A stretch of 62,933 nt of DNA, the filler included, from Calcarisporiella thermophila CBS 279.70 (lineage: Eukaryota; Fungi; Calcarisporiellomycota): NCBI RefSeq assembly GCF_041956535.1. It is 5 parts of 5 records of this genome, joined end to end, with 100 filler letters (N's around TTAATTAATTAA, not from the genome) between each part and the next. Parts side by side here need not be neighbours in the genome. Positions count along the whole stretch, not along the records: positions 1 to 27,930 come from NW_027192194.1; positions 28,031 to 44,543 come from NW_027192199.1; 3 more parts are not named here. One strand, written 5' to 3'. The translations under genes and the position numbers were made by a program. Positions 12,562 through 59,724 of the stretch are shown here, piece after piece. The notes beneath the pieces were generated by a model. That model saw only the letters and a program-made list of their open reading frames with translations. It was not told where the DNA came from and did not search any database. Numbering within the stretch: position 1 is the stretch's first letter; each line of letters starts with the position of its first letter.

Positions 12562-12635
12562 TGTTCTCGTCCGGGTTCGAACCGGAGACCTTCCGCGTGT
12601 GAAGCGGATGTGATAACCAACTACACCACGAAAAC
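12562..12635 (-). tRNA. tRNA-Val(CAC)
   Basis: Reverse complement GTTTTCGTGGTGTAGTTGGTTATCACATCCGCTTCACACGCGGAAGGTCTCCGGTTCGAACCCGGACGAGAACA folds as a full cloverleaf. Confidence 0.96.
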
Positions 12636-12700
12636 TCACTTGAAAATTTTTTTACAAATTTTCTTTTTAAATGAATTTTTCAAAAGCAGTCACAAAATGA

Positions 12701-12757
12701 ATTTTTTTCATGTCTACATTTATCCATTACACGGATAAATGTAGACATGAGAAAAAT
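12701..12757. repeat. Inverted repeat: 18-bp perfect arms, 7-nt loop, extending to ~25 bp
   Basis: TCATGTCTACATTTATCC-attacac-GGATAAATGTAGACATGA. Confidence 0.9.
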
Positions 12758-13845
12758 ATCACTTGTTGATACATTCACTTTACTGCTCTTAAAATCTTTG
12801 CTGTTTTATTCACAGATAAAGTTGCTGTAATTTATTTAATATTTTTACAAGTTACAAAAGTGCCAAAATTGTTTTCAAAAACTGCCAACCTTTATCTTTT
12901 CAAATGTCTTGAGAATGCAACACTGGTAAAGATTATCATCTTTTGCTTGAATCAAAAATTGAAATAAACACGAAAGAGACTAACGAACCCTATTATGTTT
13001 GATCAGCATAAAGCTCGAAGCTGAAATCTTATGAAGAGTTTGAAATGCTGAACCTCCGTAGCGTGTTAATTTTAAGTTTGTTTTTTAATTGCCGCCGAAT
13101 GAGCTACCATCTATGAGGATTTGACGGAGGCAACCTAAGCACTTTGGAACGCGTTATCGTAAGAACTTTTGAGTAGATAAGAAATGGCATCACAATAGTC
13201 AATGTCGTTGGCAAACACTATAGTTAGTCTCATTAAATTCGAAACCTTAAACAATACGTTATATGAGGGCTTTTAAGGGATAGATCTGTCCCAGCTCAAG
13301 CTAATTCTATACTGTCCTGCACAGTTCTCTCAGGCCTCTACCATGTGAGAAGCATTGATAGATTCCTTTGATAGCTAAGCTATGTAGTGTGATCTAGAAA
13401 TTTTCTCCCCTGTGAAATTGAGAGAACAGCGAAATACATAATAAGTTTGGAGATATTTGGAATTCACTATCTAATCAAAGCGGGATCAAGACCTAGGGCC
13501 CTATGCCCGTGAGCTTTGCAAAATTTCAGTAGAACCATGCATAAAATTTCTCATCGTACCACCAGAAGAGTCATTTATCGAGCCAGAATATTGAATGGGC
13601 TTATAGAAACAAGTATATTGAGGAGGTTTCGATCCAAGTATATTCACACGCATGCACTCCACCTCATGAAAGAAAAAGAGAGTACCCCTTCCTTCCCTAG
13701 CGTGTTAATTTTCCTCATATCGATGTCGTACAAAATGTGGTTGCCTAAGGGCCATTTTCATATAAATAGATGGCAGCTATCTTTTCAATCCTAACGTTCG
13801 ATTCTAATTTCAGATCGTTATTAAGACTTTGTTTCTCAAGCTACT

Positions 13846-22519: not shown

Positions 22520-24723
22520 TCGTGTATTTCTTGTTCGAGTTGCCTCGTCTTTTTCTTCTTCTTCTTCTTCTTGAATGTAATATTTGCTCTTCTGTTTCTC
22601 TATCTGCTTCTTTAAAAGTATGTAATTAATGATGGTAAATTCTTCATCTTTTTATATTTTTACAATTCCTCCAGCTTGGCTGGTTTTTTTTATTCTACGC
22701 AATTTTCTCTTGTGTTTACCTGTCTGTTAAGTAGTAATGATATATTTCTAAAAGTACTCGAATAAACAATTCTCTGTGAAAACCATGCCAAATACTTGGG
22801 CATATCAATTTCTAGTCTTATTTTTATCTTTCTTTCTGTGGATCGGCCCAATCCTTGAGCCAGGTGATGTCAGTGGCCTTTAAGAGATGCGTACTGATTT
22901 CTATCCTCCGATTGCATTTCGCTTTTAGCCCACCGCCACTCAACCGGTTATGGAGCAATCCGAGGAAAACGAGAGCAGGATCGGTAAGAGAAAAATGCCC
23001 AAGTAGGTAGCTCTATTTTTTGCTCATGCAACTCAAATACTAATCGGATGAATCGCCTGCATGGGCCGTGAGAATTGGAATGAAAATTACTAAATATAAC
23101 CACATTCTCTTGCGCATATTGCCCGATCAACTGGATGCTTGCGCATCGCGTGCTGAGACCGGCCTATTTTCCTCCTCGATGCTTATTTGGAAAGCCAGCT
23201 TGAAATTTAAGGCTGCTCTGGAATAAGCGTCGGGCCGAGTTAGCCTCCAAGCTATTTTGGAGTCAATTGAAAGGATTGAAAGGATTTGGTTTGGTGTATC
23301 AACCGCGAAAAAAAAAACAGGGCGATGGGACCATATCAATCACCAAGGGGCTGACTCGATAGCATGGAATGTTTGGAAGATAGGCAAGGAGATTTACAGG
23401 TGTTCTTCACCTGTGACCCTGCGTTGTTTGCGCTTTGCCTTGACTAACACCCAGACAAGACTGTAAAATTTTATTGCATCTCACTTTTTTTTTCTATTTT
23501 ACTTTACTCTTAGTTGCCACCCCGATCTCTACAATCGAGTCGATGCAAATGGACTGCTTAATCTCAAATGCACCATACTATTCGAGGAAAAAATGGTGAG
23601 CAGGCCTTATGAATAGGTAGATATCGAGCGATACCTTAAAACAAAGCCGTACTAACCTCTCTACCTCGTGGGAATCTAGTGAAATGCTGGTGGTGGTTTA
23701 ATGATAACAAGATATGGGCTTTGTTTTTGAAAGGAAATTCAATAATGAAAGTGAAAGGAAGAGCCTATCTCAGCAATGAGATAATAACAGCACTATTCTT
23801 GGCTATCTAGCACAACTAAATGACTGCTTGAGAGGTGCGGGGAGAGTGGGGAAAAACAAATATATCGAATATCTGGAAGTTAACTTGGATCTTCTATCTA
23901 CGGCCCTAGTTCAATGCGGCACATTCGAGATTAAAAAGTGAATCTTAGGTCTAGAGCGCCCAGAACTTAGGGTAGGTAACTTGAGTCAATCTAAATTATC
24001 TTATCAAGGGCTTTTGGTAGAGTAAATCATATGAAGTGTCACTGATTATATACTCGATAATTCAAGCAATGATTACTTTAAGTAAAACTTTACAAAACGA
24101 GAATAATTGGGCGATCAAATCAATGAGCATGCCCATTTCCATACGGTATACTTTGCCAACCCCTTTATCCCTCCTCCATTCGTAAAACCAAGCAAGTTTC
24201 CTCGTCTCCACCTGAACTGACCTTTCTATCTATTTAACCTTATAACCTACTTTCTAGTGAGGGATGCCATAGCTCTCTACTGAAAAAAGACTGGCTATAT
24301 TATGCAGGGTACCCTTTTACACCAGAATCACTTAGGTTCCGCCCAAAACCTACCGAAAATGATTTATCCCGTTTCTATCTTGTAAAACGGTCGATACCGT
24401 ATCCTGTGCTATTGCCACTCTAGGTCGCGCTACGAGGTAGATTTTAAGTCTCAGAGTACCTTGTAAAAACGTTGTTCCATTTTACCATTTACAGATGACG
24501 CCAATTGATTTTGGAACCACCTAAAGGCGCTATTTCAGAAAATAACCATAATAGTCATTCTATTTGGGTACGTGTTCAAGAAAATGACCCATTACACGAA
24601 AATAGCCAAGAAAAGCTGCATAGTGTGAAATAGCATTGAGTCCAGTTGTGTATGTACATGAAATAATAAAGAGGAGAAAAAAGGAAAGGAAGGATAAAGG
24701 AAATAGAGTAAACAAGTGAGATA

Positions 24724-25172
24724 TTTTTTTTTTTGTTTAGGAAGATCTTTATTAAAAACTATCCTTTTTAGTTCTTAATAAAGGACATTGATAGACATCA
24801 GAAAACAAGAAATACATGGGGGATGTATAGAGAGTGTGCACATCTTTCCTATTTTTCAAGAAAAGTGGTATACGAAAGAGGGAAGGAGAAAAAAAAAATT
24901 AGAATATGGGTGGCAGGGTATTCAACATAGTCGTATCGGAGTTAAGTATTTTGGTTGAAGAATATTTCGTCTTCTTGGACTTGTATCCAACTTCCCTTAC
25001 ACCAAAGCTCTTGGAAAACTTCTTTTTTATCCTTTATGGACGCTGACCACCATTTGGACCTCACGATTTTTTGTATCTCGTGTCCTAGTTGATCAGCGAG
25101 CGCTATTTCGCTTGGTTGGGCGTTGCCCATTATCATCGATAATCTGGATCGATAGATGATCTATATCGCTGC
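24724..25172 (-). mobile_element. 5'-truncated non-LTR retrotransposon, family A (ORF2 C-terminus, 3' UTR, polyA)
   Basis: PolyT 24724-24734; ORF end IVRSKWWSASIKDKKEVFQELWCKGSW is near-identical to 25930-26120. Confidence 0.85.
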
Positions 25173-25204
25173 AGATTAGATTCTCCTGAGTAAAAATGAG
25201 GTGA

Positions 25205-25400
25205 TTTTTTTCCTCTAAGGGCACGAAAATTTGCATCCTGTGGTTTATTTAATATATATGACAAATGTGAGACATGCTTCCGAACAAGATTATTAAGTAC
25301 TAGAAAACACGGGATATAATTTAAAGAGTTCCGTGCTTGGAAAAGTCGGATTAGGTGTTCTTTGCTTCCTCGAAATTGAAGGCTACCTCCTAGTTGTCAT
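25205..25400 (-). mobile_element. Short degenerate 3' fragment of non-LTR family D
   Basis: GGTGTTCTTTGCTTCCTCGAAATTGAAGGCTACC (about 25354) matches about 26924; T7 run at 25205 and AATAAA on the minus strand at about 25244. Confidence 0.55.
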
Positions 25401-25416
25401 CCACTGAGTAAAAGTG

Positions 25417-25468
25417 TTTTTTTTTTTTTGATCAATTAATGGAAACTTTTATTTAATTTCCATATAGT
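25417..25468 (-). mobile_element. 3' tail matching the SINE at 57208-57549 (remainder in gap)
   Basis: Reverse complement TATATGGAAATTAAATAAAAGTTTCCATTAATTGATC(A)n versus TATATGGAAATTAAATAAAAGTTTCCATTGATTGATC(A)n at 57504-57549. Confidence 0.8.
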
Positions 25469-25929
25469 NNNNNNNNNNNNNNNNNNNNNNNNNNNNNNNN
25501 NNNNNNNNNNNNNNNNNNNNNNNNNNNNNNNNNNNNNNNNNNNNNNNNNNNNNNNNNNNNNNNNNNNNNNNNNNNNNNNNNNNNNNNNNNNNNNNNNNNN
25601 NNNNNNNNNNNNNNNNNNNNNNNNNNNNNNNNNNNNNNNNNNNNNNNNNNNNNNNNNNNNNNNNNNNNNNNNNNNNNNNNNNNNNNNNNNNNNNNNNNNN
25701 NNNNNNNNNNNNNNNNNNNNNNNNNNNNNNNNNNNNNNNNNNNNNNNNNNNNNNNNNNNNNNNNNNNNNNNNNNNNNNNNNNNNNNNNNNNNNNNNNNNN
25801 NNNNNNNNNNNNNNNNNNNNNNNNNNNNNNNNNNNNNNNNNNNNNNNNNNNNNNNNNNNNNNNNNNNNNNNNNNNNNNNNNNNNNNNNNNNNNNNNNNNN
25901 NNNNNNNNNNNNNNNNNNNNNNNNNNNNN

Positions 25930-26640
25930 GTATCCAACTTCCTTTACACCAAAGCTCTTGGAAATCTTCTTTCTTATCCTTTATGGACGCTGACCACCAT
26001 TTGGATCTCACGATTTTTTGCATTTCGTGTCCTAGTCGTTCAGCGAGCGTTATTTCGCTTGGTTGGGCGTTATCCATTATTATCGATAATCTTGATCGAT
26101 AGATGATCCAGATTGCTACATCATGGACCGTTGATACTACTTCCCGTTGGTAGCCCATGGTTTTGTAGTCTGTTCCAAATAGTCTGTCTTCCTTGGTTGA
26201 TTCGTGGGCTCTCACTCCAAGAATGCGGCAGACGTAACCGTCTACCGTTTGCCATAACTGACTTATGGCCGGGCATTCCAGGTAGGCATGGCTAATGGTT
26301 TCCATTGCGTTGGTTGTGCATCGCTTGCAAATATTAGGTTCTCCTGTCCACTTACTAGTGATGATGTTTGTCACCAATCTGTGTTTCATGAGTCTCCATC
26401 TTAGTGTCATATGCTTGGGTTCGCTCGGCCGCTTTTTCCAGTACATCCAAAGTTACCTCTCAACTGATGGAATCACTTGAGGTCTCTTTCCATTTCGGAG
26501 TGATATTCTCTCCTTTGCTTGTCTTGTAGAGCCTCCCGATTTTTGTACGGAAGTTTTTGATCTTTGTGCCAGCTAGAACACATTTACCCAGCGGGAACGT
26601 GCATGGTCCTTCAATCTGTGGTTTACCCTGTAGCAGGGTC
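25930..26640 (-). mobile_element. 5'-truncated L1/Tx1-like non-LTR retrotransposon, family A (zf-RVT region), degenerate
   Basis: LRWRLMKHRLVTN...CKRC...ETISHAYLECP...LW is the CCHC zf-RVT domain; stop/frameshift near 26455; ends about 82 bp upstream of tRNA-Arg. Confidence 0.9.
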
Positions 26641-26722
26641 TAATAAAAAAAAACACGCCCAAAAATTTCAAAAAAAATTAAACATAAGTAGGTTAGACTT
26701 ACGAACATCACGTGAGCAAATT

Positions 26723-26795
26723 GGGTGTATGGCCAAATGGATAAGGCGCCTGACTACGAATCAGGAGATTCCAGGTTCGACCCCTGGTACGCTCG
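26723..26795 (+). tRNA. tRNA-Arg(ACG)
   Basis: GGGTGTATGGCCAAATGGATAAGGCGCCTGACTACGAATCAGGAGATTCCAGGTTCGACCCCTGGTACGCTCG; T6 terminator. Confidence 0.96.
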
Positions 26796-26845
26796 AAGTC
26801 TTTTTTGTCAATTATGACCCTATTTAGTCTGTAGCTAATGGCACT

Positions 26846-27330
26846 CTAGTCATTTCTAATTTTGCAATAAAATATTTTTTGATATCGCGTCCTTGAAAGA
26901 TCTATGCTTGAAACGTTGGTCTTGGTGTTCATTGCTTTCTCGAAATTGAAAGCTACCAACTGGTCATCGTTGATTTTGACTGGCAAGCTCTTTACCCATA
27001 TCTGCATGAATCTTTCTACACCTTTATTCCTCTGTGCCAGTATCCACTGTCCATTGATCACAAGAAATAGATCGGATTGAAAGAAACTTTCGAATGCAAT
27101 ATCATTATGCTCTTAGTTACCATAACGATTGCAATCCTCGTCTTGTATACGTTTTAGTCCATAATATCTTGTAGGAGAGTTTTTGCTGGTTCTTGCCTTG
27201 TGTCTCATCGAAACATCCGAATAGTCGGTCGTATCTTTGGATTTGTGGCCGGGTTCTATCTAGGAACCTCTGCTGGAGTCTATAGGACCGTCTCCAAAAA
27301 TCGCCGAATCTTTTGCAATAGAATATATCG
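26846..27330 (-). mobile_element. Degenerate non-LTR retrotransposon ORF2 C-terminus, family D
   Basis: Frameshifted translation IFYCKRFGDFW...YDRLFG...TRIAIVM...INGQWILAQ..ERFMQIWVK parallels family A HAYLEC..LW...EDRLFG...SRLSIIM...VRSKWWSA..DFQELWCK. Confidence 0.65.
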
Positions 27331-27354
27331 AAAGCTAGAAAAAAAGGTGGATTA

Positions 27355-27785
27355 TCTTTATACCCCCGTCTTTATTGTTTAAGAAGACTCTAGAATACAA
27401 TCGTTACATTATTAAAAGTAATAAAATGAGAGAAAAGCTAGAAATTAACGCGATATTGCAATTCGGGATAAGTTGATCATAACGAATTTTCTCCTCAAAT
27501 GGGTAGATGAGTAATAAAAACTCAACTAACTGTGGGTATTAGGGAACAACTTGGTAAGATATATGAAGAGAGAGTTATGAAGAAAGAGAAGGGGTAGTAG
27601 TAGGGACTACTTCGTCAATCCAGTTCTAGAGCCGCTCTATTAGCTCCTTCTTTCACAGCGCCCATTTTACACCACCTGCTTCGAAACTGTTCAATTTGTC
27701 GCTTTTTTCGGGCTCTTGTTAGTTCGGCTCCTATAGCCTCCTCAATATCCAACTTGGCCCGATTGATGATAGTTTCGGATGAGTA
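27355..27785 (-). mobile_element. 5'-truncated non-LTR retrotransposon, family B
   Basis: IINRAKLDIEEAIGAELTRARK...QIEQFRSRWCK and the 3' UTR are homologous to 58575-59021 and 59040-59430. Confidence 0.9.
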
Positions 27786-27795
27786 AAGATGGTCC

Positions 27796-27930
27796 TTTTT
27801 TTTTTGATCAATCAACGGAAACTTTATTAGTTTCCGTAGCTTACAAGAGTTTAATGATTACAATGAAATAAGAAAGGGGGGAATAAAGGGTAAATTAGAT
27901 GTATATAGTGATCGGGTATTTGGTGAAAGA
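27796..27930 (-). mobile_element. 3' end of retroelement family C (runs into gap)
   Basis: PolyT followed by GATCAATCAACGGAAACTTTATTAGTTTCCGTAGCTTACAA, the reverse complement of 57138-57189. Confidence 0.8.
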
Positions 27931-28030
27931 NNNNNNNNNNNNNNNNNNNNNNNNNNNNNNNNNNNNNNNNNNNNTTAATTAATTAANNNNNNNNNNNNNN
28001 NNNNNNNNNNNNNNNNNNNNNNNNNNNNNN
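27931..28030. other. Artificial contig linker N-TTAATTAATTAA-N (also 44544-44643, 57037-57136, 59903-60002)
   Basis: Identical 100-bp N-padded six-frame stop cassette occurs four times; true gap sizes are unknown. Confidence 0.95.
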
Positions 28031-28044
28031 ATTATCAGAAATAG

Positions 28045-28117
28045 GCTTCTATGGCTCAGCTGGCAGAGCGTCTGCCTAGTAAGCAGAAGGTCCTGAGTTC
28101 GATTCTCAGTGGAAGCA
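28045..28117 (+). tRNA. tRNA-Thr(AGU)
   Basis: GCTTCTATGGCTCAGCTGGCAGAGCGTCTGCCTAGTAAGCAGAAGGTCCTGAGTTCGATTCTCAGTGGAAGCA. Confidence 0.96.
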
Positions 28118-40249: not shown

Positions 40250-42380
40250 ATGCATACTACATTCCTTTTTACACTCCTTATTCTGGCTACAATGTGCAAG
40301 TCTCGGCCTATAGCGCAGCGAGAGGCCCCCAGTATATTGAATGTCGGCAAAACACAAGAAGGGCTAGAGAAAGTTCTTCAACCTATGTGTTTTGAGATAA
40401 ACTCATACTTGGATCCGGAATCTCGCAAAAGTTGGCCTTGCGAGCCATTGACATTTGAAAATGCGGCTATAACAGAAAGAGAATTTACTCGCCGTCAACA
40501 AAAAGATAACGCGACAGATATCAGCAATCAAATACAAGTCCAGTTTAAGTGCAACGAGGTGCCAGACAAGCAATGCAATAAAGCAAAAAAAGAATTTGAA
40601 CTCGCTGGCCAAATCTTATCAGCTTCGATCAAGTTCTCGCAACCCATCTTGATTGACGCACAGTACCTCTCCTTCTCTAAAGCTGATCCCACAAAGAACG
40701 GATTCCTTGGGTTCGCAGGACCAACACGTGCTCACCCAGTAAAAGATGATGATGGAGTGGTTAGGTTATATCCACAAGCGCTTGTTAAAGAGAGGAATCT
40801 CAATGGGACGGATTTTTCGCAGTCTGACATTACAGCTTATTTTAATGCCGATATCCCCTTAAGCTTCATAGATGAGGATCAAACGAAGCCTCAAAATAAG
40901 ACTGCATTTTTAGAAGTGGTTAGTATTACAGAAAAGATTTACCTTTTTTATCCTTCAACTTATTGATTTATTGATATAGGTTGTTCATGAACTTGTTCAT
41001 GGTCTTGGATTCGGTTCTTCTTGGAACAACAATATTGCCCCAGGGCAAAAGTTTTTAACTCCTCAGATTATATTTACAAAATCCCCTAATCAATCGATTT
41101 CGGTCAGTGGATTTATGGAATCGATTTTTGACCGCTTCCTGGTAACCCTTCCCGAGAATGAACGTCTAACTGAAATCACCAAACAATTGAACCAATTCAA
41201 CGACGGAAATCCAGTGACCGTTCAAAATGAAGCAGAATTTCAGACTATGTTTTTTAAAAGTCCTCAGGCAGCCATAGCTGAAAAGATGATGAATAAAGCG
41301 ACTGGCGGTCAAAGTGGTCAAGGAATTGCTTTTGTACCTTCCCAAGATACTGGAGTGAATCAGGTTTTGCTGGAGACTTCCCTCAACCCATACACATTTG
41401 GCTCAAGCATCTCGCATGTCGACAAAAAAACTCACCTCAACACCCACGATAGTTTAATGAAGCATAACGCTGACCTTGGCAAGTCTTTTGAACAAACCAT
41501 CCGCGAGTTTGGGAACCCTGTTGGACCAGAGTTGACTTCTATACTCAAAACAATGGGGTATAAAGTTGAGCCAGCCAGTAAGGAAGAAGTTCTCTTACTA
41601 ATAGAAAAAGCGAGACAGTTTTCTGCAAATATTCCCAGTGATGGACCTAATCCTAGTGTTAATGACGATGCGAGTCCGGATGCTACTGAGAGTTCAGATA
41701 CTAGCCCCAGTGTTAGTGAAAGAGGCGGTGGGAACCCAAATGCTAGCGAAAGTTCTGTCGCAATTCCGAGCATTAGACCAAAAGTTAGCACTGATCCTAG
41801 GGTTACCGAATTTGCCGGTGAAAGTACCAGCGTTAGAGCAATAGCCAGTGCAAGTACTAGCGTAAAACCGACAACTATTCTAAGTCCTTCCGTTAGTTCG
41901 ATTAGGGCTAGTACTAGGGTAAACTCAATAGCCAGCACTAGTGTTGGAGCGATCGGTGATGCAAAACCTAGCGTAGGACCGGTAGCTAATGCAAAATCTA
42001 GAGTTAGACCGATAATTGATACTAGTCCTAGTGCTAGATCAATTATTGGGGCAAGTACTAGCGTAAGATCAATTGCAAGTCCCAGTGTTGGAGCAATCGG
42101 AGGCGTTAAACCTAGCACAAGGCCGGTAGCAAGTGCGAGACCAAGTGTTAGTCCGATAAAGGGTGCTAGTCCTAATGTCAGAGCGGTTGGTGGAACTAAA
42201 CCTGACGTAAAACCGGAAGCTGATACAAGACCAGGTGTTAGTCCGATAAAAGTCGCTAATTCCAATGTCAGAGCGATTGGTGGAACCAAACCTAACGTAA
42301 GGCCGGTAGTTGGTGCAGTACCTCACGTTAGACCGAACACTGGTGTTAATCCCAATGTTGGGCCGATACCCGAGGTTTAA
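40250..42380 (+). CDS. Secreted HExxH zinc-metalloprotease-like protein with repetitive C-terminal tail, 2 exons (intron 40919-40979)
   Basis: Signal peptide; LGFAGP, LYPQALVK, ITAYFNA; spliced VVHELVHGLGF; GSSISHVD; SLM. Confidence 0.85.
41640..42377 (+). repeat. Degenerate 30-bp (10-aa) tandem repeat inside the protease CDS
   Basis: SPNVRAVGGT KPDVKPEADT RPGVSPIKVA NSNVRAIGGT KPNVRPVVGA VPHVRPNTGV NPNVGPIPEV. Confidence 0.85.
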
Positions 42381-42620: not shown

Positions 42621-45565
42621 AATTGCCCGAAGAATGCTTAAAGATTCAGCTTTATTCTCTTTCTTAGATATTTTTCACTACTTGTTACCAAATATATAAG
42701 TATTTATCGAGTGTAAATATATATCAGTATCTATTTAAATTTTCAAATATTGTATTAAAGAGTGGTAAGTTATTATAAAAAGATGGTTCTGATTGTAAAA
42801 TTCGCAGTAATACAGAAGATTCTACATAAATTGACTAGACCTGCTGCAAATAAATCACCTACGCATCTCCATGTTCTCTTCCCATCGTCAATTGTTACTT
42901 CTATAGCTGTTTTTGTATACTATCCGTTCGACATAAGCTTAGCCAATTTTAACCTCAACCTCTCTGAAATACTTTTCAAATAAACAAAAGTTTGCTACGT
43001 TACACCATATCAGCGTCCACTAACATCTCCTTTCATCATTGCATCCTGCCCACGCCAACTGCTTTGGAACTGATTGATTTCTTGTTGCTATTGTGACTTA
43101 TAAAATATTGGTTTTATATGCTTCTTCTATTTAGAAGTTTTTGTTACTAGTGGTTAAAGACTTTGCGAAGAAGTGTATAGATTTAATAAAAACAGCAGAT
43201 TAGTGTTAATAATAATAATATCATGAGAGCAGAAGAAAATGTTCGATAAAATTTGATTTGGTGTTTATATATAGGAAATCGAGAAAATCAAAATAGATGT
43301 TTTCACGAGTAGCAAGATATGCATTATTTTTAGAGAATCTAATCCATGAAAAAGATTTAACCAATAAAACAATATACAACCTCTGGTCCTAAAGAAGTTT
43401 TATTTGGCTCGTAGTGGCGCGGTTATGACTGTCTGTATGAAATACTGACATTCCCATAATAGCAATGTCGTGTGCTAGAGAAGGGATATGTTGTAAGTTA
43501 GGATAAATAGGCGAATAGTAGCGGTTTCACGGATAGTAGTTTGTTGCAATTTAATATTCCGTAGCGAGACTTTGGTTCAGCCTTCGGATTATATTTTTTG
43601 TGTTTACTTTACGTAACTTAGTTATTTTAAGTGTATATATAGTCTTTAGATCTTAGTCTTTCTAAGAACAAGAAGTAGCTAGAACATTATTAGTTTCTTT
43701 ATATTTTTTTTGATCAATTATTAGATTCTTTGTATTTTCAATCTCTTTTCGAATATCTCCTTAAACTATCTTGAGAACACGAAAGTAGATGTTAGTTGGA
43801 AACAGGAAATGTGTGGTAGAAGGGAATTATCTCAACTATCTGAGCGCTATCTCAAGTAGCCTGCTTATTCGTATGCAGATCCGTACTTAAAGAAAGGAGA
43901 TGTCGAGAACTTGGTATATGAAAATAGAACTCTAAATCCTTGCTTTATTACATAAAAGTTATCACCCTTTTTATAATATTGCTAGATAAAACTATGACTC
44001 ATAACAAATAGTCAAAGAATAGCTCAATATTCAATAAAACCAAGAAAATCCTCAATAAAACTAAAATATGCATCTTTGAAAGATATCGAATCCCAAAACG
44101 CCGTCACAAGCTTGTCCACGTTACTTTATTCTCGTCGTTACAATAATATGTTATGAACCGTGGTGGACTTAACCAATGAGAATCACCTAGCGAGAAGGAA
44201 ATCTAATCTTTTATTTCAAATCTAATCTTTTCATCTAATTTTTGGAAATCCAATTCTTTAATTTGAGCGTTACCTTTGTTCTACCCTATTCACTTTATGA
44301 CAAATATTACGTGATATGTGAAATGTTTCTCTTGTTATACCATTCTATCTATTCTACTATTTCCATCTATCTGTTTTCTTATTCTTATATAAGGCTTAAC
44401 CTTTTAATTCTAATTAATAACAAGTTCCTATCAAGTTTGAGATTTTCGGTGCTATTTCTCCACATTTCCTAAATTCCACATAAAAAATAATGTTACGGGC
44501 GAAAGGAGGTTTGTGTGGAGGGGTGTCCGGATCTTTATAAAAANNNNNNNNNNNNNNNNNNNNNNNNNNNNNNNNNNNNNNNNNNNNTTAATTAATTAAN
44601 NNNNNNNNNNNNNNNNNNNNNNNNNNNNNNNNNNNNNNNNNNNAGAGAACCTTGGGCTCTCGCCCAAAGGGAATTATCATCTCGGAAATTTCTCGAAAGG
44701 AGATTTGGCGAAGAGCATTCCATTATATACGGGGAAATAGCGACTTGAGTGGGCTTTTAAATGATATAGCTGTTTTATACAGTATATTGGAATTGTTTAT
44801 GAAATACCGCTAGAAGTTCTTTACTACGAACCAAATTACACCTAACCCATTTAGATAGCCTGTATTCTAAATAACCGCTCCAACTATGCGCCCCCTCACT
44901 CTTTCGAGAAGATTCCATCGACTTAATTTTGCCAAAATAAGAGTTGTTAATAATCTGTTCTCTAAGTATTTACATAAAGTTGGAGTTTAAAATATTGCAT
45001 GAATTTACAATTTGAATCTTTTTATTTAACTATTTGTCATCTCTGATACCAGAGTCAATAATGGAACTATTTTATGGATTTCAATTTTGATTATTATCTC
45101 TCTCTGTATTTTATTAGATATATCATGGTATTTATACAATATATGTATTGTGCATTCTATATAAATGAATATGAACATACAGCCAGTATATATAAAGTTT
45201 AATAGACCATGGCGCTAACCTTTGTTGTACATTAATCAAAGGCCATCCTAACATTCACTTAGAAAGTTTGAACGGATAGTCATCCAAGAAAATAAAGGAA
45301 AAAAAAAGAATAGCAATAGTAACTGGAATAGTTCAAACCTCAAGGAGCACCAAAGCCCCTAACACTACGAAAAAGCATAGGTAAATTCAAAACTGTGAAA
45401 CGAGATATTGAGAAAAGTTTCGAATTGCAACTGTTCACTCCCTTAATACAACTTAGCCTTATAAATAGTATAATAGGAAATGAAATTATTTGTTTGCAAG
45501 CAATCTAGTTTAATAGTTATAGTATTTCAGCCCTATTTTGAGTAGCAGGATTTTTATTTATTGGA

Positions 45566-48958: not shown

Positions 48959-49219
48959 CGATTTTATGTAACAGTCCCCTGCGCGGGCAAAGTAAAACTA
49001 GGAAAAAATATGAATTCAGCCTTTAATAAAATTACGCATGGTGGATGAAATCCTCTTGCATAAGGGAAATATGAGATTTTGGTCGGCATACTCGTAAATT
49101 TGCACTTCCGAACACTATTAAACTCTGCCTTAGGAAATCTTTATTCAATTGAACAAGCCACGGATTCGAATCATGAAACTAGAATGCTCGTGAAGGTTAA
49201 CATGATTTTTTCCACCTAA

Positions 49220-49390
49220 TTGCAAAAAAACACTCGAGTTGGCTACAAGGTCAGATTGGATGATCTGTGGGAAAAGGTGAATATCGTCTGGGAGTCACTC
49301 ACTCAGGAGGATTGTTTGAAGTTGATCCGCACGATGCCGGAACGGATCCAAGCCGTTATTAAGGCAAAAGGAGGATATACTAAGTGGTAG
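49220..49390 (+). mobile_element. Tc1/mariner transposase C-terminal remnant
   Basis: LDDLWEKVNIVWESLTQEDCLKLIRTMPERIQAVIKAKGGYTKW* matches the typical Tc1 C-terminus. Confidence 0.85.
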
Positions 49391-51311
49391 TCGGAGAGCA
49401 CTTTATTTATACAAATTATCGAGTATTCATTATAATGCCCATGTAAAGAAAGAGAATAAAAGGTTGGCACCATGTAAAATCTCTATATCTGGATTTAAAA
49501 AATTTCCCGAAATATATTAATATTTCACTTGAAGAGAATTAGTAAAGGGTATTCAGTTGTATATGTAATGGTAACGGCGTAAATGAGCTTTTCAAATATT
49601 TAATAGTTTTTTATACGGTCGTTGTTTGTAAAGAAATATTTAGGTAAAAGAAAAAATTTTTAGGTGCCCCAAAAATTTCCGGAGATACTTTATTTTATCA
49701 GGGTAAATCGTGGTTTTGTTTATGTTTTCTAACAGGTTTCCTTATGATGTTTTTTTGTAGGGATGCGTAGGTTGGATTCATAGTGGGCGAGTATTCTATG
49801 TGGTTGATAAGGAACAAATTTATACGCTATCATAGATGTAAAAACAAAGGAGTATGTTGTAGTATGAATTAAAAAGCCAGTTAGTAACTGATTTTTCTGA
49901 AAATTTAGTCTATTACCACGAATTTTAACTTGACATTTGATTAAAATTCACTTGCTTTATCAATCATATTCAGAAAAATCAGGGATATGATGAAAGCAAA
50001 TAGTGGTTATAAAAGATGGTGAAATAATTTTTTGATTTTATATTGTACTGGGCATCATAGCGAAATTTCGATAATTGAAATTTCATTTTTATTGTATAAC
50101 TCATGACATAAAAGGTATTTTGCAAGTCCATGTAGATCGATGGTTGTGATATGGATAGCTGTGGTTGATTTTCGTAGCGCAACATAGTATAGCTTGATTT
50201 GAGGATATTAAGGGAAAGTGATATGAAAAATATAGATTATTCGATCACATTCCGAGGGCAGTTTATATATAGGTTGTGATCTATCTCACTTGAGTTCTTT
50301 GGTGTGTTTGAGTTGTGTTATCCCTTCTGCCTGTCTTCTTTCCTTTTTATCAGTATATTCTTANNNNNNNNNNNNNNNNNNNNNNNNNNNNNNNNNNNNN
50401 NNNNNNNNNNNNNNNNNNNNNNNNNNNNNNNNNNNNNNNNNNNNNNNNNNNNNNNNNNNNNNNNNNNNNNNNNNNNNNNNNNNNNNNNNNNNNNNNNNNN
50501 NNNNNNNNNNNNNNNNNNNNNNNNNNNNNNNNNNNNNNNNNNNNNNNNNNNNNNNNNNNNNNNNNNNNNNNNNNNNNNNNNNNNNNNNNNNNNNNNNNNN
50601 NNNNNNNNNNNNNNNNNNNNNNNNNNNNNNNNNNNNNNNNNNNNNNNNNNNNNNNNNNNNNNNNNNNNNNNNNNNNNNNNNNNNNNNNNNNNNNNNNNNN
50701 NNNNNNNNNNNNNNNNNNNNNNNNNNNNNNNNNNNNNNNNNNNNNNNNNNNNNNNNNNNNNNNNNNNNNNNNNNNNNNNNNNNNNNNNNNNNNNNNNNNN
50801 NNNNNNNNNNNNNNNNNNNNNNNNNNNNNNNNNNNNNNNNNNNNNNNNNNNNNNNNNNNNNNNNNNNNNNNNNNNNNNNNNNNNNNNNNNNNNNNNNNNN
50901 NNNNNNNNNNNNNNNNNNNNNNNNNNNNNNNNNNNNNNNNNNNNNNNNNNNNNNNNNNNNNNNNNNNNNNNNNNNNNNNNNNNNNNNNNNNNNNNNNNNN
51001 NNNNNNNNNNNNNNNNNNNNNNNNNNNNNNNNNNNNNNNNNNNNNNNNNNNNNNNNNNNNNNNNNNNNNNNNNNNNNNNNNNNNNNNNNNNNNNNNNNNN
51101 NNNNNNNNNNNNNNNNNNNNNNNNNNNNNNNNNNNNNNNNNNNNNNNNNNNNNNNNNNNNNNNNNNACTTGAGTTCTTTGGTGTGTTTGAGTTGTGTTAT
51201 CCCTTCTGCCTGTCTTCTTTCCTTTTTATTCAGTATATTCTTATTAAAATCCAATACATTGTAATTTGTAATTCTTGAGCTGCACCAGAATGACCAAGAT
51301 AACTGCAATCA

Positions 51312-53995
51312 TCAGAGCCTATTTTCATATACAACCCAATTCGAGCCCATCAGGAGAGGGAGATCTGCACGCGATATAAGGGTAACTGAGTGGCCACGGA
51401 CAAGGCACCTTTCTGTCATCCAAGTATTGCTTGTCGTGATATACAGATAGTGGACACCTTCAGGCAGAGTCTTATCAAGTTCGAGCTTCAGAGATGCGAA
51501 ATTTGGAAACCGCGGAGTTTTTTCTTTAGTCAGGCAAAGAGACATATAGTATTCGATAATTGACATATTATTCCTCGTACATGTATTCTTCGTTTTCTTG
51601 ATGAGTCGTTTTTTGAGATCAGTGACTTTGGACCTGTGTTCGTTGTATGGTGACAAGGATATTTGGATAAAGTATAGTTCGCAGTCTGTCGAATATGCCA
51701 GTAGGTCTGCGACCGAGTGTCCCTTTCCAGAATCATTAGAGTCCCCGGTTCCAAGGCCGGTATGGCATTCAAAGTCGAAGTCTGTTCGATTGTTTGAGTG
51801 AGGGTAATATTCCAAATTTTATCTTGTGGTTCTCCCATGAGAGTTCTGCTATTAAAGCGGATATCGATGCGCTTTTGCGGCCTGAAGGTCAAAGTAATCA
51901 GGAGCGCAAATGCTCGCCATTTGAGAGCTGGATCCGCCAACTAACGTGAATTAGAATTTGTAAACACACAAGCATAAAAAATATAAAAACAATTTAGTGA
52001 GCCTACCAATAAATCAATAGATGGTTGATACGATTCCGCCATATACTGGACGAAGGCCCTGATCACGGGAGGACAGACATATACCCAGACTCCTGCTTGT
52101 GATCTAGGGACAAACAAACCGGTGATTTTCCATTGCGACGGTGGTTCCCCCAGTGACATATTTGTAGCAACTGCTGCCGCGTAGTCATGAATTTTTCGCC
52201 GTGCTAAGAGGTCCATTTTCTCTGCACGTTCAAGAGTTTTCCTGATTTTGCTCCTGTAAAACTCGGTAGCTCGATCGTAAAACCCGCCGGTGTCATCACG
52301 GATATTACTGAGAGGAGTGTCCAAACGCGTATGCCAGGCTTCACACCAAAAAAATATCATCCGCGGGACAAGTCCGGAATGATATCGAATCTGATTGGCA
52401 TCAACAACTAAGAAATAGTTAAACATGAAGCGAGGCAATTTCTGCAGACACCATCCGAAGCTAAACCATACCTTCCGGAAGTCGTTTAAAATGCTGTTGG
52501 CATTTCATTATGGAACTGAATTCATGTCATAGGATGGAATGTCAATCATAATCGTCTGTGCATCGGCATTCCGGAATTCTTCATATGGAACAAAAGAAGA
52601 GGAAATGGCATAAAGCCAAAATCCCGAACGCTAGAAGCAGAAACATACATACTGCATTAATAATAATTAAGATACATCCTTTACGAAAGACTTACCAGCT
52701 TGTTTTTGGTAAAGAGATTCAACACTTTGTTATTCACGTATTTGGGAGAGCACCTGGCATTCCATTCATCGACGGCAACGAGAACCGGATAACTGCAAAA
52801 ATTAAGATACAGTATGAGCAAAGTAATCATTCTGTGGAATCAATAGAGATGGACTCACTCAAGCTGTGCACTAAGAAAAACATCACAAATCACCTCCAGA
52901 GTTCTAATTGGATTCTTGTTGATGCAGTTATTAATACAATCATACAGAGATAGATTTTGACTTTGCTCTTCGTTGATGCCAAAATATCGAGATATGGGCT
53001 CATTAACAGTTTTATCGGTCTTGATTTTCTCAAGTTTATCTTTTTCAGCCTTCAAAAAATTCATCAAAATAGTTTTAGCAGCGGCTGCCTGTGAAAGTTG
53101 ACCTAGTTTTCCCGCTGAACAATAAACATAAAGATACAAGTTAATTTTTGTTAGCGATCAATGAAAATAAATTGATGACTTACCTCGTGGAATGTATAAA
53201 ACAAGCCATCCTGAAGCCCGGCAAAAGTTAACGACATGATAAAGAACATATGATTTGCCGGCACCAGCAGATCCCCCTAAACAAATGATGGATGGCTAGC
53301 ATCAGCAGGTATTCAGAAAAAGGAGATAATTCCTCCACCAGATTACTCACTGATAACCTTGCCAACATTGCCAAACCATCCTAACTTGTCAAATACACCC
53401 CTCAAATCCTTGAAAAATTCTAATTGAGCGAGAGCACAATTCCGGATGAGAAATGGCATCTGGATTACATTCAAAGTTGATGGGTCAACATGAGGATAAT
53501 TATCACGCAACATCATCTCATGAAAAACTCCCGTTGGTGCGCCATCCGGCATCAAGGAAGTGTCAAGTAAAATGATGTGATTAACATGTTCCCGTGTGTG
53601 CTGTGTCTGTCAATCCATATAAAGAAATATAATTATTAGTCTTCAATTATTATTGTGCAAATTAATGGCAAAAGCATATCCACCGTGTCATTAATATCGA
53701 GCAAGCTGAAAGGTACCCTGTCTGTGTCCAGATGTGGAAAAGGTTCATCTTCAAAATGATCAGTTTTGAAATCGGTATCATCCTCAGATTTCTCATCATT
53801 CGCGCGGAAACCGGTATGGGAAGGACCAGCCAGAGAATTACTGTTAATCGTATCCTGGGTAGCATCACTAAATATGGAACTTTTGCTACTTTCACCATCT
53901 TCGATACCGGATGTATCAACTTCCGAACGGAGTTTTTTTGTTACTTGTTTTCTTTCGCCTTTAAGGAATCCCTTTCGCTTCTGCAAGCCCGACAT
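51312..53995 (-). pseudogene. Crinkler-like P-loop NTPase (DAP3-like) plus restriction-endonuclease-fold gene, multi-exon, two apparent frameshifts
   Basis: Walker A GSAGAGKS-YVLYHVVNFCRASGWLVLYIP; Walker B VLVAVDEWN; REase-like GHSVADLLAYS...YFIQISLS; frameshifts near 52525 and 51722. Confidence 0.7.
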
Positions 53996-54535: not shown

Positions 54536-56545
54536 TGCGTTGGTTCATAGGGAAAAATGTCCGATTCATTTTTAATTCCAGAAAATCGGCAACGTGTCTT
54601 AGAAAAAATTTTTGAAAAATTTTCTGTGGCTTATTAATTTGCTCGAGTCCAAAATCAGAGCGGTACGTCACCAAATAACTATTTTTCTGAAAATCTGTGC
54701 ATATTAAATTGGATAAATGGTAGTACTAAGTGTAGAAAGTCTTGGGGGAAAGATTTAGAGAGGAGCTTTATTTTATCTTTTTCATTTCTCGATCAGGGAG
54801 TTTGGCTACTTTCTATCCGATTTCATAACTATTATGCGGATAGGCTCATAGGGTAAACATGTCCGAAAAATTTCTTTATCAAAAAAATTGGGAAACTTGA
54901 TTACCGTGTGTAGTATTTAGGTACTCTATCGCATTCGAGCTCTAGCACGGCAATTCAATTCATCAGAAAATTACGGAATCATTTTCAGCACATTGAGGAG
55001 ATTCCAACATCTAGTATCTCTAATATTTGAACATTATGTTGTAGAAGAGGGCCCACATTTGTTTTTTGTGAATGGCAGAGCATGCAATATATAAAGAATG
55101 ATCGATGATTTTTAAGATGATGAATCAGAAGCCAGAGAAAGAGAGAAAAGTATTATTAATACACTCTTCAACTGTTTCATTGTCTGCCCGTGAATGCTTT
55201 GCCATTAAAGAGCACAAGTAAAAGAATACTGAATTATTGCATAAGGCTACTAAGACTCATAGGTATAAAATGCCATGCATCACCAATCGATCTATCAAAG
55301 TTGAAGGTTAGGTTAATTTTTCTATGCAATTATTAACAAAGTAAACGGATATAAGCACTACTGTGACGGCAGAGGGGTAACTCTGACGTCAATAAGTTCC
55401 ATACAAAAGGCTTCGTCTTCATATCTACATATATTTAAAATACAATACTTCAACATATTCCCGGTAAATAATGCAGTAGCAATTTGCAAATTCTTAATTA
55501 AATTCAACAAAATTATAAACTAAACATTGCAGAGTATAGAGTTTGACCCTAATATGTCTTTACTTTCGTTTTACCATACTTTCATCCAATATTAATCTAA
55601 AGGTAATACTATATATGCAGCGTCAATTCGTTGAAAAAGCATTTCCTCGTCAATGGTAAAGCGTTTTTGCACTAGCAATGGGTAATAGAGACCGAGTTGA
55701 CCTAAGTTTGAGTCCATAATCTCATATCTATCACCATTTTCATTCTAAGAATAAACTCCTTTTTTTTAATTATTCAAACTAAGCAGAAGCATATGCTTAC
55801 TATCTTTTCGTTCTTCATATTCAATTCTACTTAATCAATCCACAGCATTATTGTTCAAATAGGAGTTTCCACGTTTTTCACGGATCAAACAAAAAAATTA
55901 TATTTGATCAGTGAAAAACTCACGCTGAGAACTCTATATTTTTATTACAGATTTCGTGTTTTACAATAGATACAATTACGGTTAGAAGCTTTGGCTCGCC
56001 ATATTAAATTATTCTTCAATCAGATCATATCTTTATAATTAACTCTAACCTACATAAAAATTATTTACTATAAAATTCCACCATTTTTATTTCATATAGA
56101 GTAATACAATTATTAATAGGCACTTTAAGAAACAATTTTCTCATAGCATCTTTAGTATCATTCAAAACATTCACTTGGTTTCGAAGCGGAAGATTGGATC
56201 AATGTTATCTTTCGATGACACCGCGACTACGAGATCCTTAATTAGACCAGTGGGCAAGTCGTAAACCTAACAAAGATCATCGAGGTAACAACAACAAAGG
56301 TGACTACTTCAAACTTAACTTTAAGTCATGTGATGAGTTATTCTGTATTGCGCCACATTTCCCATGGTGATATTCCGATCAATTATTGTTCTGTTACACT
56401 TAATCTTTGCACTGCACTGCCATGATATAAAAACCTTATTCTTTGCCCCTTCCTGTGACCCTTAGAGAGCGTATGTATAAAATTTACATGACAACTTAGC
56501 ATTTATATTTTCACCACACTTATATAATACACACATCACACGCGA

Positions 56546-57036
56546 ATGGCAGAGGCATACAGGCAATTTTTCAATAGGCTCTATGAGTCACAACCAGGCT
56601 CCAATGCGGATCAATGCTACGCCGGTAGCGAAGACGGCGAAGAAGCAAAGTCTGCCAACCCGTATAATAACCACGGGATATGCATAGCTTGCAAAGGCCA
56701 CTGTAGAGGAACTGAAAGAGAGTGTAGGGTTAAAAGGGAACGGCTAATCTACACATCTTTCGTACGAGCTTGTGAAGTTCTAGAGAGACACGATCCGGGT
56801 TGGCCGTTGAGACCTGTGGCGATAATGTCTCAGAGACCTGTCGCTACAAACGTTAAATCTGTCGAGGCTGTACCCAACTCCGAATGGGTATACAGAAGTG
56901 AACTTCCAGTTGGATCATTTGAAGAAAGAACCTTGTGCGGCTTCGCGGGGCGATGTAGCAAGGCAGAAATCGCTAACGAGTGCGACGACGATATGAAGAG
57001 ACGGATTAGTGATATTGAGAGGGGGAATGGTACTGT
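56546..57036 (+). CDS. Hypothetical protein, 3' end lost in gap
   Basis: Open frame of more than 160 codons after an AT-rich leader; contains CIACKGHC. Confidence 0.4.
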
Positions 57037-57136
57037 NNNNNNNNNNNNNNNNNNNNNNNNNNNNNNNNNNNNNNNNNNNNTTAATTAATTAANNNNNNNN
57101 NNNNNNNNNNNNNNNNNNNNNNNNNNNNNNNNNNNN

Positions 57137-57189
57137 ATTGTAAGCTACGGAAACTAATAAAAGTCTCCGTTGATTGATCAAAAAAAAAA
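57137..57189 (+). mobile_element. 3' end and polyA of retroelement family C
   Basis: TTGTAAGCTACGGAAACTAATAAAAGTCTCCGTTGATTGATC(A)10, matching 27796-27848. Confidence 0.8.
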
Positions 57190-57207
57190 TATTCGAGAGC
57201 TCCACTA

Positions 57208-57549
57208 GGGGAGGGGGAGGGTTAGTGTAGTGGACTATCCCTCGGATGCCGATGAGAACGGCGTGGGTTCGAATCCCACTTCCCCCACCAGCACTTACCC
57301 TTAGTTTGTGGCTGCTATCCACTTGATCAGAAGCTGAGTCTTGATTATTGAAAAGATCGCCCTTACGATAAGTACAAAAGATTACATCGGTTTCACGTAC
57401 ATGCTATTCACGACAACTGCGATACATGCATATCGATTGAAAGTCTATCGATCAAGGACCTATATCTTGTTATGTTAAGTCCATTGACATTAACTTCATG
57501 TAATATATGGAAATTAAATAAAAGTTTCCATTGATTGATCAAAAAAAAA
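57208..57549 (+). mobile_element. Complete tRNA-derived SINE (342 bp) with 18-bp TSD
   Basis: A-box TAGTGTAGTGG, B-box GGTTCGAATCC, GGGGGAG/TTCCCCC-A-CCA stem, family-C-like hairpin tail and polyA; TATTCGAGAGCTCCACTA at 57190-57207 and 57550-57567. Confidence 0.88.
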
Positions 57550-57567
57550 TATTCGAGAGCTCCACTA

Positions 57568-59021
57568 CCAAGCTCAAACGCAAAGGAGGGTTCTGGTTTA
57601 ATCAGTTCCAAACGTGGCGTACGCTCGGAGGTAGCCCAGTAGCATCACCAAACTGGACTGCGACTGAGGTCTTGTCCCTACTTCTCTACAAGTGCCAGTT
57701 AATCACAGACGAGGGCCGACAGATGGAGGAGCCAAAACCCCCAACACCGCCATACCTCCTCAATGAGACACTAACTTTCGTACGCTGGGGAGGACAAATC
57801 GAGTGCAGATCGCTCCATAATCAGGTTTTATTTGACAGGAATATTGGAAGGCAATCGGAAATGGAGCGTAGATACTCTGCGCTCCCTACTGAAAAGCTAA
57901 GGAACGTGTGCCACCGCCGATACTGCAGCCGTTCTCTTGGATGGGAGCTCCGTTACCTCAACTTACCCCCGAGCTTAGTTGCAAAGGTCACGGAGTGTAC
58001 CGATATACCGCAACAACACCCTCACCCCCGTTTCCCACTTTATCACTGCCACCTGGCCGGCAGGCCTGTCGTAGAATAGTCCACCCGACAAGGACGTCAC
58101 TTCCGGCGCAACGGCTCTCTAGAGCCGAACATATTGGTGCCTCAATCCTGGCCAGAGGCTGGATCTACACCCGAGGATTGGAAGAAAATCTGGACTTCCG
58201 TCCACAAACGACTCACCCTCCCAAAACACCGTGCGTTACGCTGGCGGATTCCTGTGGAACGAGTGATCACTAACTCGACATTTCCTGGTCACGATCCGAA
58301 GTGCACCCGATGTAACGCCTCGAGAGACACAATTCGTCATACTTTCTTCGAATGTCTTGAACTCACACCAGTATGGCAATGGGCGGAGAGGTGCATCGTC
58401 ACCATCACAGGCCCCCAGAATACTCCGGTGCTGACTGCTCGCAACTTCATACTAGGAGACCTCACGGAATCCTCGAGAACAGCGAGACACGTAGCCCGAA
58501 TTACTTTTGACTCGGTGTTGTGGCAAATCCACCGAGATCGGATCGCCTTTCATTTCGAAAGCACCCGAGCCTCACCCGAAATAATCATCAACCGGGCCAA
58601 ACTAGATATTGAGGAAGTGATAGGAGCCGAACTAATCCGAGCACGTAAAAACCGGCAAATCGAACAGTTTCGAAGAAGGTGGTGCAAGCTGGGTGCGGTT
58701 AGAGAAGGAGCGATCGGGGCGGTACTGATACTGGGATAACGCAGTAACCCCTACCTTATCCCCCTCTTATCCTCTGCTTCTATTTGTTTACTACCCACCC
58801 CATTTCTCCTGTTATCCTTTGATATCCACAGTTAGTTGAGTTTCACCACTCCCTTACCTATTTGAGCTGAAATTCGATATGACCAACATGTCCTTTCGAT
58901 CTACGATATCATCCAAAGCTTTAGCTCCGGCTTCCCTTTCACTTTATTGCTTATAATAATGTAACAATTGTATTTTAGAGTCTTCCTATACAATAAAGAC
59001 TCGGCATTGATAAAAAAAAAA
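57568..59021 (+). mobile_element. 5'-truncated L1/Tx1-like non-LTR retrotransposon, family B
   Basis: ORF2 C-terminal half with one in-frame stop (58077-58079); zf-RVT LRWRI...CTRC...DTIRHTFFEC; 3' UTR; polyA 59012-59021. Confidence 0.92.
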
Positions 59022-59039
59022 GGTGTTCGAGAGCACAAG

Positions 59040-59722: not shown

Positions 59723-59724
59723 GC

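Follow-up and report, generated by a model that had tools for sequence, protein, structure and literature searches.

A window of 62,933 nt from the genome of the fungus Calcarisporiella thermophila CBS 279.70 (assembly GCF_041956535.1) was analysed together with gene models of the protein collection and metagenomic relatives. At positions 24724-27930, seven pieces of long and short interspersed elements (LINEs and SINEs) were found piled up around a gene for tRNA-Arg(ACG). The tRNA-Arg gene was located on the plus strand at 26722-26796 (boundaries 26722/3 and 26795/6) by ARAGORN and by Rfam with 61.5 bits. It had a terminator-like run of six T at 26801-26806 and no encoded CCA. Its upstream flank of 82 nt (26640-26721) was AT-rich. 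A retroposed copy of tRNA-Arg was ruled out because the CCA was absent and the upstream flank and the terminator were retained. A 3' transduction of the tRNA block was also ruled out, since there was no A run at the far end. All seven pieces lay on the minus strand, as seen by self-comparison and translation. They were 5'-truncated ends of the second open reading frame (ORF2) with their tails, and most of them carried poly(A). Families A, C and D were represented by 3' ends of L1/Tx1-type LINEs, one further tail (B) was unclassified, and the remaining piece was the tail of a tRNA-derived SINE.

The leftmost piece, A1 (24724-25173), was a 5'-truncated copy of family A with an ORF2 C-terminus containing one stop, a 3' untranslated region (UTR), a hairpin and a poly(A) at 24724-24734. 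It was followed by D1 (about 25206-25401), a short remnant of family D with the last ORF2 codons and UTR. In D1, 11 of the 12 C-terminal residues matched P0039, which is the ORF2 of family D. The 3' end of D1 was tentative, with a 7-nt A run and no hairpin. The SINE tail at 25417-25468 was identical in 45 of 46 nt to the tail of a full SINE at 57504-57549. The remainder of this SINE would lie inside a sized assembly gap of 461 N (25469-25929), which hides the SINE head and the tail of A2. A2 (25930 to about 26639) was the tRNA-proximal, 5'-truncated copy of family A, identified by Pfam zf-RVT (E 1.3e-8), tblastn and translation. A stop and a frame change near 26455 interrupted it, and it showed 91% identity to A1 over 191 nt. 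On the downstream side of tRNA-Arg, the closest piece of all was D2 (about 26880-27330), a decayed ORF2 C-terminus of family D in three frames (tblastn with P0039, E 1e-26). The 3' end of D2 was undefined, 5-85 nt past the 3' end of tRNA-Arg, with neither tail hairpin nor recognisable tail. D1 and D2 could be aligned over 82 columns and diverged about 30 nt into the UTR. D2 was followed by C1 (27357-27779), a 5'-truncated copy of family C that matched P0008, a model bearing a reverse transcriptase (RT), and was 90.6% identical over 392 nt to the copy C'' described below. The last piece, B1 (27796-27930), was a 3' tail cut by the contig end, and the last 55 nt or so of this 135-nt tail were common to the SINE. 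No coding sequence was seen in the B tail.

In the case of A2, homology to family A extended to 26621 and the open frame to 26639. This placed the 5' end of A2 82-101 nt before tRNA-Arg, in the opposite orientation. The sequence-only reading had given about 82 bp for this distance, which is the lower end of the range found. It had also described seven minus-strand pieces arranged head to tail, which self-comparison, translation and protein matches confirmed, and two plus-strand genes for tRNA-Arg and tRNA-Thr, both of which were found by ARAGORN and Rfam. The search for LINEs along the window used 167 LINE proteins as queries, together with a profile of ORF2. Matches were found only at 24.9-27.8 kb and 57.4-59.8 kb, with one marginal profile match at 56.5 kb. 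This agreed with the earlier statement that such elements were absent from the first 24 kb, as no match was obtained in 1-24 kb. The labels of two pieces were exchanged here: our family C (27357-27779) was called B before, and our B (27796-27930) was called C. The latter had been taken as a retroelement piece; its LINE nature was not supported, there being no coding sequence.

The claims that linked the right-hand pieces to tRNA-Thr had a different outcome. Four identical 100-nt linkers were present at 27931-28030, 44544-44643, 57037-57136 and 59903-60002, and the window was a composite of five parts. The first of them, of the form N44-TTAATTAATTAA-N44, joined different records and indicated no genomic adjacency. 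Of ten window proteins submitted to an exact look-up, two were located. The one to the left of the linker at 27931-28030 was on a record of 1,346,566 bp, and the one to the right was on a record of 932,508 bp. In addition, the gene model of C', a further copy of family C, was on a 2,766-bp record that was the exact span between the linkers at 57136 and 59903. The linkers join separate records, two of them having been tested. Adjacencies across linkers are therefore not to be trusted. Since the proteins flanking the linker at 27931-28030 were on different records, there is no ground for assigning D2, C1 and B1 to tRNA-Thr, next to which they had been placed. The sequence-only reading had itself cautioned that this link crosses a linker, and that caution proved decisive. 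The claimed order (A, D, SINE tail, A, tRNA-Arg, D, B, C) held as far as the contig end, and its continuation to tRNA-Thr did not. Likewise, the claim that all 5' ends were aimed at a downstream tRNA gene was retained for A2 at tRNA-Arg and lost for the three right-hand pieces. A decay gradient, with D as the oldest copy farthest from tRNA-Thr, was void because tRNA-Thr was on another record and D2 was the piece nearest to tRNA-Arg.

The short spacers between the pieces carried a repeated target motif. GAGTAAA was present on the plus strand at four of the five visible junctions after poly(A) in the tRNA-Arg stack, namely after A1, D1 (tentative), the SINE and B1. The background was 18 occurrences in 60,644 non-N nucleotides on both strands. 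The motif was found in S0 (24699-24723), the flank after the poly(A) of A1, and in the spacers S1 (25174-25205) and S2 (25402-25416). The spacer to the right of tRNA-Arg, S4 (27780-27795), had the same motif as S1 and S2. Local matches between spacers were evaluated against random 25-mers of the window. The p values were 0.001-0.002 for S1-S2, 0.002-0.003 for S1-S4 and about 0.01 for S0-S1. S3 (27331-27356) showed a weak match to the motif, with p of 0.03-0.55 against the other spacers. We considered the spacers as copies of the 5' boundary of tRNA-Arg, and this was unconvincing (p about 0.02 for two spacers among 55 pairs).

A second stack, overlooked in the sequence-only reading, was found at 57137-59902, with three pieces on the plus strand and two on the minus strand. 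It began with B2 (57137-57189, plus), a tail with poly(A) that was 96% identical to B1 over 52 nt. A complete SINE of 342 nt followed at 57208-57549 (plus), and then C' (57561-59021, plus), a 5'-truncated copy of family C of 1.46 kb with one stop, which had zf-RVT and 95% amino acid identity to P0002 from residue 40. The poly(A) of C' at 59012-59021 was followed directly by the target core at 59022-59034. C'' (59040-59718, minus) was an inverted copy of family C with zf-RVT, lacking its last 35 nt or so and the poly(A). An A-like 3' tail (59725-59902, minus), 72% identical to the A1 tail over 174 nt, was cut by the contig end. The core repeated in this stack, TTCGAGAGC, was different from GAGTAAA, and all three of its occurrences in the window were inside the second stack. 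The two spacer types did not match each other (p of at least 0.13). The gene models gave the same picture at other places. P0014, on a record of 1,249,440 bp, contained the SINE/B tail, a few unrelated codons as a third short spacer, family A and then family C. P0029 appeared to run from C into D, with a weak match (E 7e-4). Family C models were on at least six records, and two more were on the 1.35-Mb record that bears the tRNA-Arg stack. Judged from these sequences, the same families stack at several genomic places. The spacers and the further stack in P0014 spoke for a fixed site at which several L1/Tx1-type families and a SINE inserted again and again, and each stack would have duplicated its own local sequence.

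One target sequence for all seven pieces could produce matching spacers. This could be a loose preference of the endonuclease, or an old tandem duplication of a unit of D, spacer and tRNA, with tRNA-Arg placed in the pile by rearrangement. It would account for the match of S4, right of the tRNA gene, to S1 and S2 on its left, and the alignable D1 and D2, of which D2 has no recognisable tail, would suit the duplication. Many elements of the Tx1 clade are sequence-specific (PMC4494074). In Tx1L, Keno, Kibi, Koshi and Tx1-Mar with SINEU, tandem copies sandwich a duplication through this specificity and the SINE follows the target of the LINE, as could be the case here. Nothing further on targets was found in PMC5203782. 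However, these elements rely on a sequence preference of the endonuclease and are described from animals, whereas here the target changed from site to site. The spacers of the same families were unrelated at 57-59 kb and in P0014, the 5' ends of D1 and D2 differed, and the duplication would still need an anchor for repeated insertion. We regard a single target sequence as quite improbable. Since the same families had different spacers at different stacks, there was no family-wide target sequence. This leaves two ways to return to one site: the elements nest in themselves, or an anchor outside them is needed.

In the case of self-nesting, a first element would have landed near tRNA-Arg by chance or by AT bias. 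Later copies would have been primed in the poly(A) of earlier ones and would have duplicated the downstream bases again, with the tRNA gene as a bystander. This predicts the repeat of poly(A), spacer and element exactly as observed, and it also predicts the lack of an age gradient. There is a fungal precedent in Zorro3 of Candida albicans, an L1-clade element with target-primed reverse transcription and a poly(A) end, which integrates at poly-A tracts and is reported to show no association with tRNA genes (PMC1965478). However, Zorro3 is described as lacking target-site duplications (PMC3956500), in contrast to the 18-bp duplication and the non-A spacers of 12-30 nt found here. The distance from poly(A) to the core was 11, 10, 4 and 8 nt in the tRNA-Arg stack and 2, 2 and 4 nt in the second stack. 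The starts of the spacers wandered 2-7 nt into non-A sequence, contrary to self-nesting. A nick window accounts for such variable distances better than does priming at an A tract already present, and small deletions beside homopolymers might mimic them. In the second stack, C' on the plus strand and C'' with the A-like tail on the minus strand met at the same core boundary, and the 3' flank of C' had no A tract for priming. In addition, among the 15 A/T runs of at least 10 nt in the window, those outside both stacks had no adjoining LINE match. We consider self-nesting unlikely.

The complete SINE was informative on the order of arrival. It was flanked by identical 18-bp direct repeats (57190-57207 and 57550-57567), which constitute a target-site duplication. 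The duplication included 7 nt that can be read as the first residues of C', so the SINE should have arrived after C', on its 5' side. Such a late arrival fits nesting behind B2 equally well. Three details nevertheless favour an outside anchor, none of them being proof: the variable distance between poly(A) and core, the shared core boundary and the late SINE.

The best explanation for these observations was that the site of the pile is set by the RNA polymerase III (Pol III) machinery at the neighbouring tRNA gene, in the manner of the TRE5 elements. We put the probability of this reading at roughly 0.55, with the evidence coming from one locus. Position-specific integration guided by Pol III had been proposed from the sequence; repeated insertion and the geometry at tRNA-Arg speak for it, and the tRNA loci behind it were reduced from two to one. 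TRE5 elements insert 44-54 bp upstream of tRNA genes in opposite orientation, and their ORF1 protein binds TFIIIB (PMC5911963). The mechanism here would combine two parts. As in established L1 biology, an APE endonuclease would nick the target, reverse transcription would be target-primed, every insertion would duplicate 10-20 bp at the target, and the SINE would borrow the LINE machinery via a shared 3' hairpin tail. By analogy with TRE5-A, the particle would be tethered to TFIIIB/TFIIIC, so that nicks fall in a window, a few bases wide, upstream of the tRNA gene and older copies are pushed outward. For the three pieces to the right of tRNA-Arg, a second anchor past the contig end at 27930 would be responsible, and not tRNA-Thr.

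The comparison was made with TRE5-A, TRE5-B and TRE5-C of Dictyostelium discoideum and NLTR-B of Polysphondylium pallidum. These elements and the ones described here have an L1-type RT with a zinc-finger C-terminus in common. The 5' end of TRE5 faces that of the tRNA gene, and tandems occur at occupied tRNA genes (PMC5911963; PMC5391098), as was seen at tRNA-Arg. For TRE5-A a 3' hairpin is reported as necessary for transposition, and hairpin tails were also present in some of our elements. However, several differences were found. The host of TRE5 is a dictyostelid and ours is a fungus. The distance of 82-101 nt was at or past the edge of the 37-90 bp observed for TRE5-A in the genome (PMC5006619), and far from its mode of 47 ± 3 (PMC5391098). 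Here a tRNA-derived SINE and no fewer than three diverged LINE families used the same site. One of our stacks held both orientations, whereas all seven pieces of the tRNA-Arg stack were on one strand. No ORF1 was seen from this genome in the window and the gene models.

Several observations weighed against anchoring at the tRNA gene. Three of the seven pieces were on the downstream side of tRNA-Arg, and it was their tails that faced the gene. Only one of the four stack heads could be evaluated, since the other three ran off contig ends; this one, at tRNA-Arg, had its 5' end facing that of the tRNA gene (1/1). In favour of the anchor, the chance of this geometry was about 0.3% per stack head at the tRNA density of the window, and the figure ignores that the scan selected the coincidence. 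Two tRNA genes had upstream DNA, and one of them, tRNA-Val, was empty, with no match upstream to the 167 queries and the ORF2 profile. The empty tRNA-Val was not fatal, since TRE5-A occupied 98 tRNA genes and a tagged element reached 334 (83%; PMC5391098). A fixed site predicts that the tRNA-proximal junction is the parent of the spacers. Contrary to this, the 82-nt flank had no GAGTAAA at the A2 junction, and the junction was unlike S0, S1, S2 and S4 (p 0.2-0.8). The recurrence of the motif at S4, to the right of tRNA-Arg, was unexplained by a single upstream target. An outward age gradient was not seen, as, in a comparison with a third copy, A1 (90% over 29 aa) and A2 (94% over 63 aa) showed about the same identity. 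The mixed orientation of the second stack departed from TRE5 unless two anchors exist. None of four metagenomic relatives had a tRNA gene, although their contigs were nearly all element and hence uninformative. On the second stack's contig no tRNA gene was found by ARAGORN and Rfam, and a search for intron-containing or hidden tRNAs near it returned only the SINE head. Isolated B boxes can serve as targets (PMC3159450).

Of the other three tRNA genes of the window, two lay close to the start of a part. ARAGORN and Rfam each found four tRNA genes in total. The gene at 25-112 was a tRNA-Ala with an apparent 14-nt intron, which an intron-free ARAGORN run called Leu. The tRNA-Thr(AGT) at 28045-28117 (plus) was a real gene with only 14 nt of upstream DNA present. 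Two of the ten ends of the five parts began 24 and 14 nt upstream of tRNA genes (1-24 at Ala and 28031-28044 at Thr), with a post hoc p of about 3e-5, and three other ends stopped within element tails. Ends of both kinds would arise where the assembly is interrupted by repeats located upstream of tRNA genes. Against this, the breaks were nearer to the tRNA genes than 82 nt, and drop-out of AT-rich DNA could be their cause. The tRNA-Val gene was on the minus strand at 12562-12635. By eye, a perfect inverted repeat (16 bp, loop of 7 nt) was seen at 12700-12760, about 70-110 nt upstream of it. It is possibly a small mobile remnant or a protein-binding site, and it lies at the distance where the tRNA-Arg stack starts.

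All seven pieces pointed away from the contig end at 27930. This would also be expected at the edge of a pericentromeric or heterochromatic field, with the core beyond the contig end and tRNA-Arg at the boundary. Grem-LINE1 of Mucorales and Umbelopsidales forms such fields. This element of early-diverging fungi belongs to the L1 clade and has RVT and zf-RVT domains; its copies are clustered and uniformly face away from centromere cores, and at scaffold ends they are aimed away from the end (bioRxiv 10.1101/706580). The two further family C models on the same 1.35-Mb record would suit such a field, and the Atlas cluster nearest to P0008 was mostly Mucoromycota. However, Grem fields extend over 15-75 kb, are gene-free and contain full-length elements, with the centromere core as the anchor and no mention of tRNA in the text searched (bioRxiv 10.1101/706580). 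Our pile measured 3.2 kb and consisted of short stubs, separated by repeated spacers, at a tRNA gene, about 2 kb from an ordinary gene. The spread of family C models over at least six records and the second stack, which points towards both its ends, were also not in line with a field edge. We consider this origin improbable.

The elements were placed in the L1/Tx1 group by RT type and the zf-RVT C-terminus. P0008, the longest model of family C (712 aa), contained RVT_1 and zf-RVT. Its best solved match was human LINE-1 ORF2p with E 2e-16, against E 2e-8 for R2. The zf-RVT domain was present in A2, C' and C''. The 5' truncation, poly(A) and target-site duplication of such elements were found, with the 18 bp of the SINE as the sole perfect duplication, the others degenerate and D without a clear tail. 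A family-wide target sequence, as looked for with the strict Tx1 clade in mind, was not found, because the spacers differed between stacks of the same families. Dewa, of the Tx1 clade, targets spacers of tRNA arrays. The APE domain was absent from the truncated copies of the window, and metagenomic relatives in the same clade of the tree had it. The RT tree included 43 of 147 eligible rows (104 were left out), with no Tx1 or TRE reference among them. In this tree, two RTs from this host paired (99/97) in a clade of unlabelled sequences, apart from the rows of plant L1, fish and mussel. The third-nearest Atlas cluster to P0008 carried a locus tag that we take to be from Microbotryum; this is similarity of features, not phylogeny.

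Among 82 metagenome stretches, four were confirmed as relatives (38-56% identity). In two of the four, the start of ORF1 was covered together with DNA upstream of it (259 and 524 nt). The ORF1 of L002 gave a zinc knuckle match below threshold only (E 0.06). By eye, the full-length relative L003, with ORF1 and ORF2, was apparently preceded at positions 1-90 by a fragment of the endonuclease region of a related element, which would be nesting in a different organism. No related locus was found in 25 viral contigs.

These data allow a tentative extension, which we hold to be possible and somewhat doubtful. A fungal lineage of L1/Tx1 type, with several long-diverged families and its own SINE, may home upstream of Pol III genes via host factors rather than DNA sequence, and this habit may date far back and extend to basidiomycete relatives. 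In the 2018 review on Pol III targeting, all four non-LTR entries of the table were dictyostelid, and the target specificity of fungal LINEs was given as unresolved (PMC5911963). A tRNA-targeted fungal LINE was not found in the literature searched, which left most subscription journals outside. If it holds, tRNA-gene targeting by non-LTR elements would have a fungal origin too, having otherwise been found described only for social amoebae, and either LINEs reached this safe harbour once more or the habit goes far back. A LINE/SINE pair with a mappable targeting determinant would become available, and assembly breaks close upstream of tRNA genes would be accounted for. Should nesting or a pericentric edge apply, the pile would be an ordinary heap of dead transposons.

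The complete SINE with its target-site duplication was a small finding of its own. It had an A box at 57223, a B box at 57267, a CCA-ended tRNA-like head, a hairpin tail enclosing an AATAAA loop, and no T4 run. The head gave an Rfam match to the tRNA clan of 25.9 bits (E 0.19, below the gathering score) and a relaxed ARAGORN match. The element was short and non-coding, with A/B-box head, poly(A), duplication and more than one copy, which makes it a tRNA-derived SINE of the SINE2 type. It shares its tail with B, while B shows no coding sequence. A single compensatory pair in this shared tail was not beyond shuffles (417/500). Tail hairpins were significant in five of the ten tails folded and not in C, D and the A-like tail. 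The z score of folding was -3.9 for the A1 tail and +1.06 for D1. An exact-pattern scan of the metagenome contigs for the SINE/B tail gave no match, nor did a narrow search of the literature on fungal SINEs.

A few minor features were observed elsewhere in the window. At the contig end, a possible decayed LINE ORF2 stretch (56528-57036, plus), from the part of ORF2 that precedes the RT, gave a weak profile match (domain E 0.01, restricted search), and no tRNA gene was found upstream of it. Two broken ORFs at 51320-52504 (minus) had no Pfam match; LINE remnants had been suspected at 51.3-52.5 kb, and the ORF2 profile gave them no support. A stretch at 49200-49390 (plus) resembles what we take to be the C-terminal end of a Tc1/mariner transposase. 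The region 41800-42360 (plus) encoded the Pro/Ser/Val-rich C-terminus of a probably secreted protein with degenerate internal repeats. Finally, a near-identical 77-nt repeat (50288-50363 and 51167-51243) flanked a gap of 803 N, which is likely a contig overlap or a collapsed tandem repeat.

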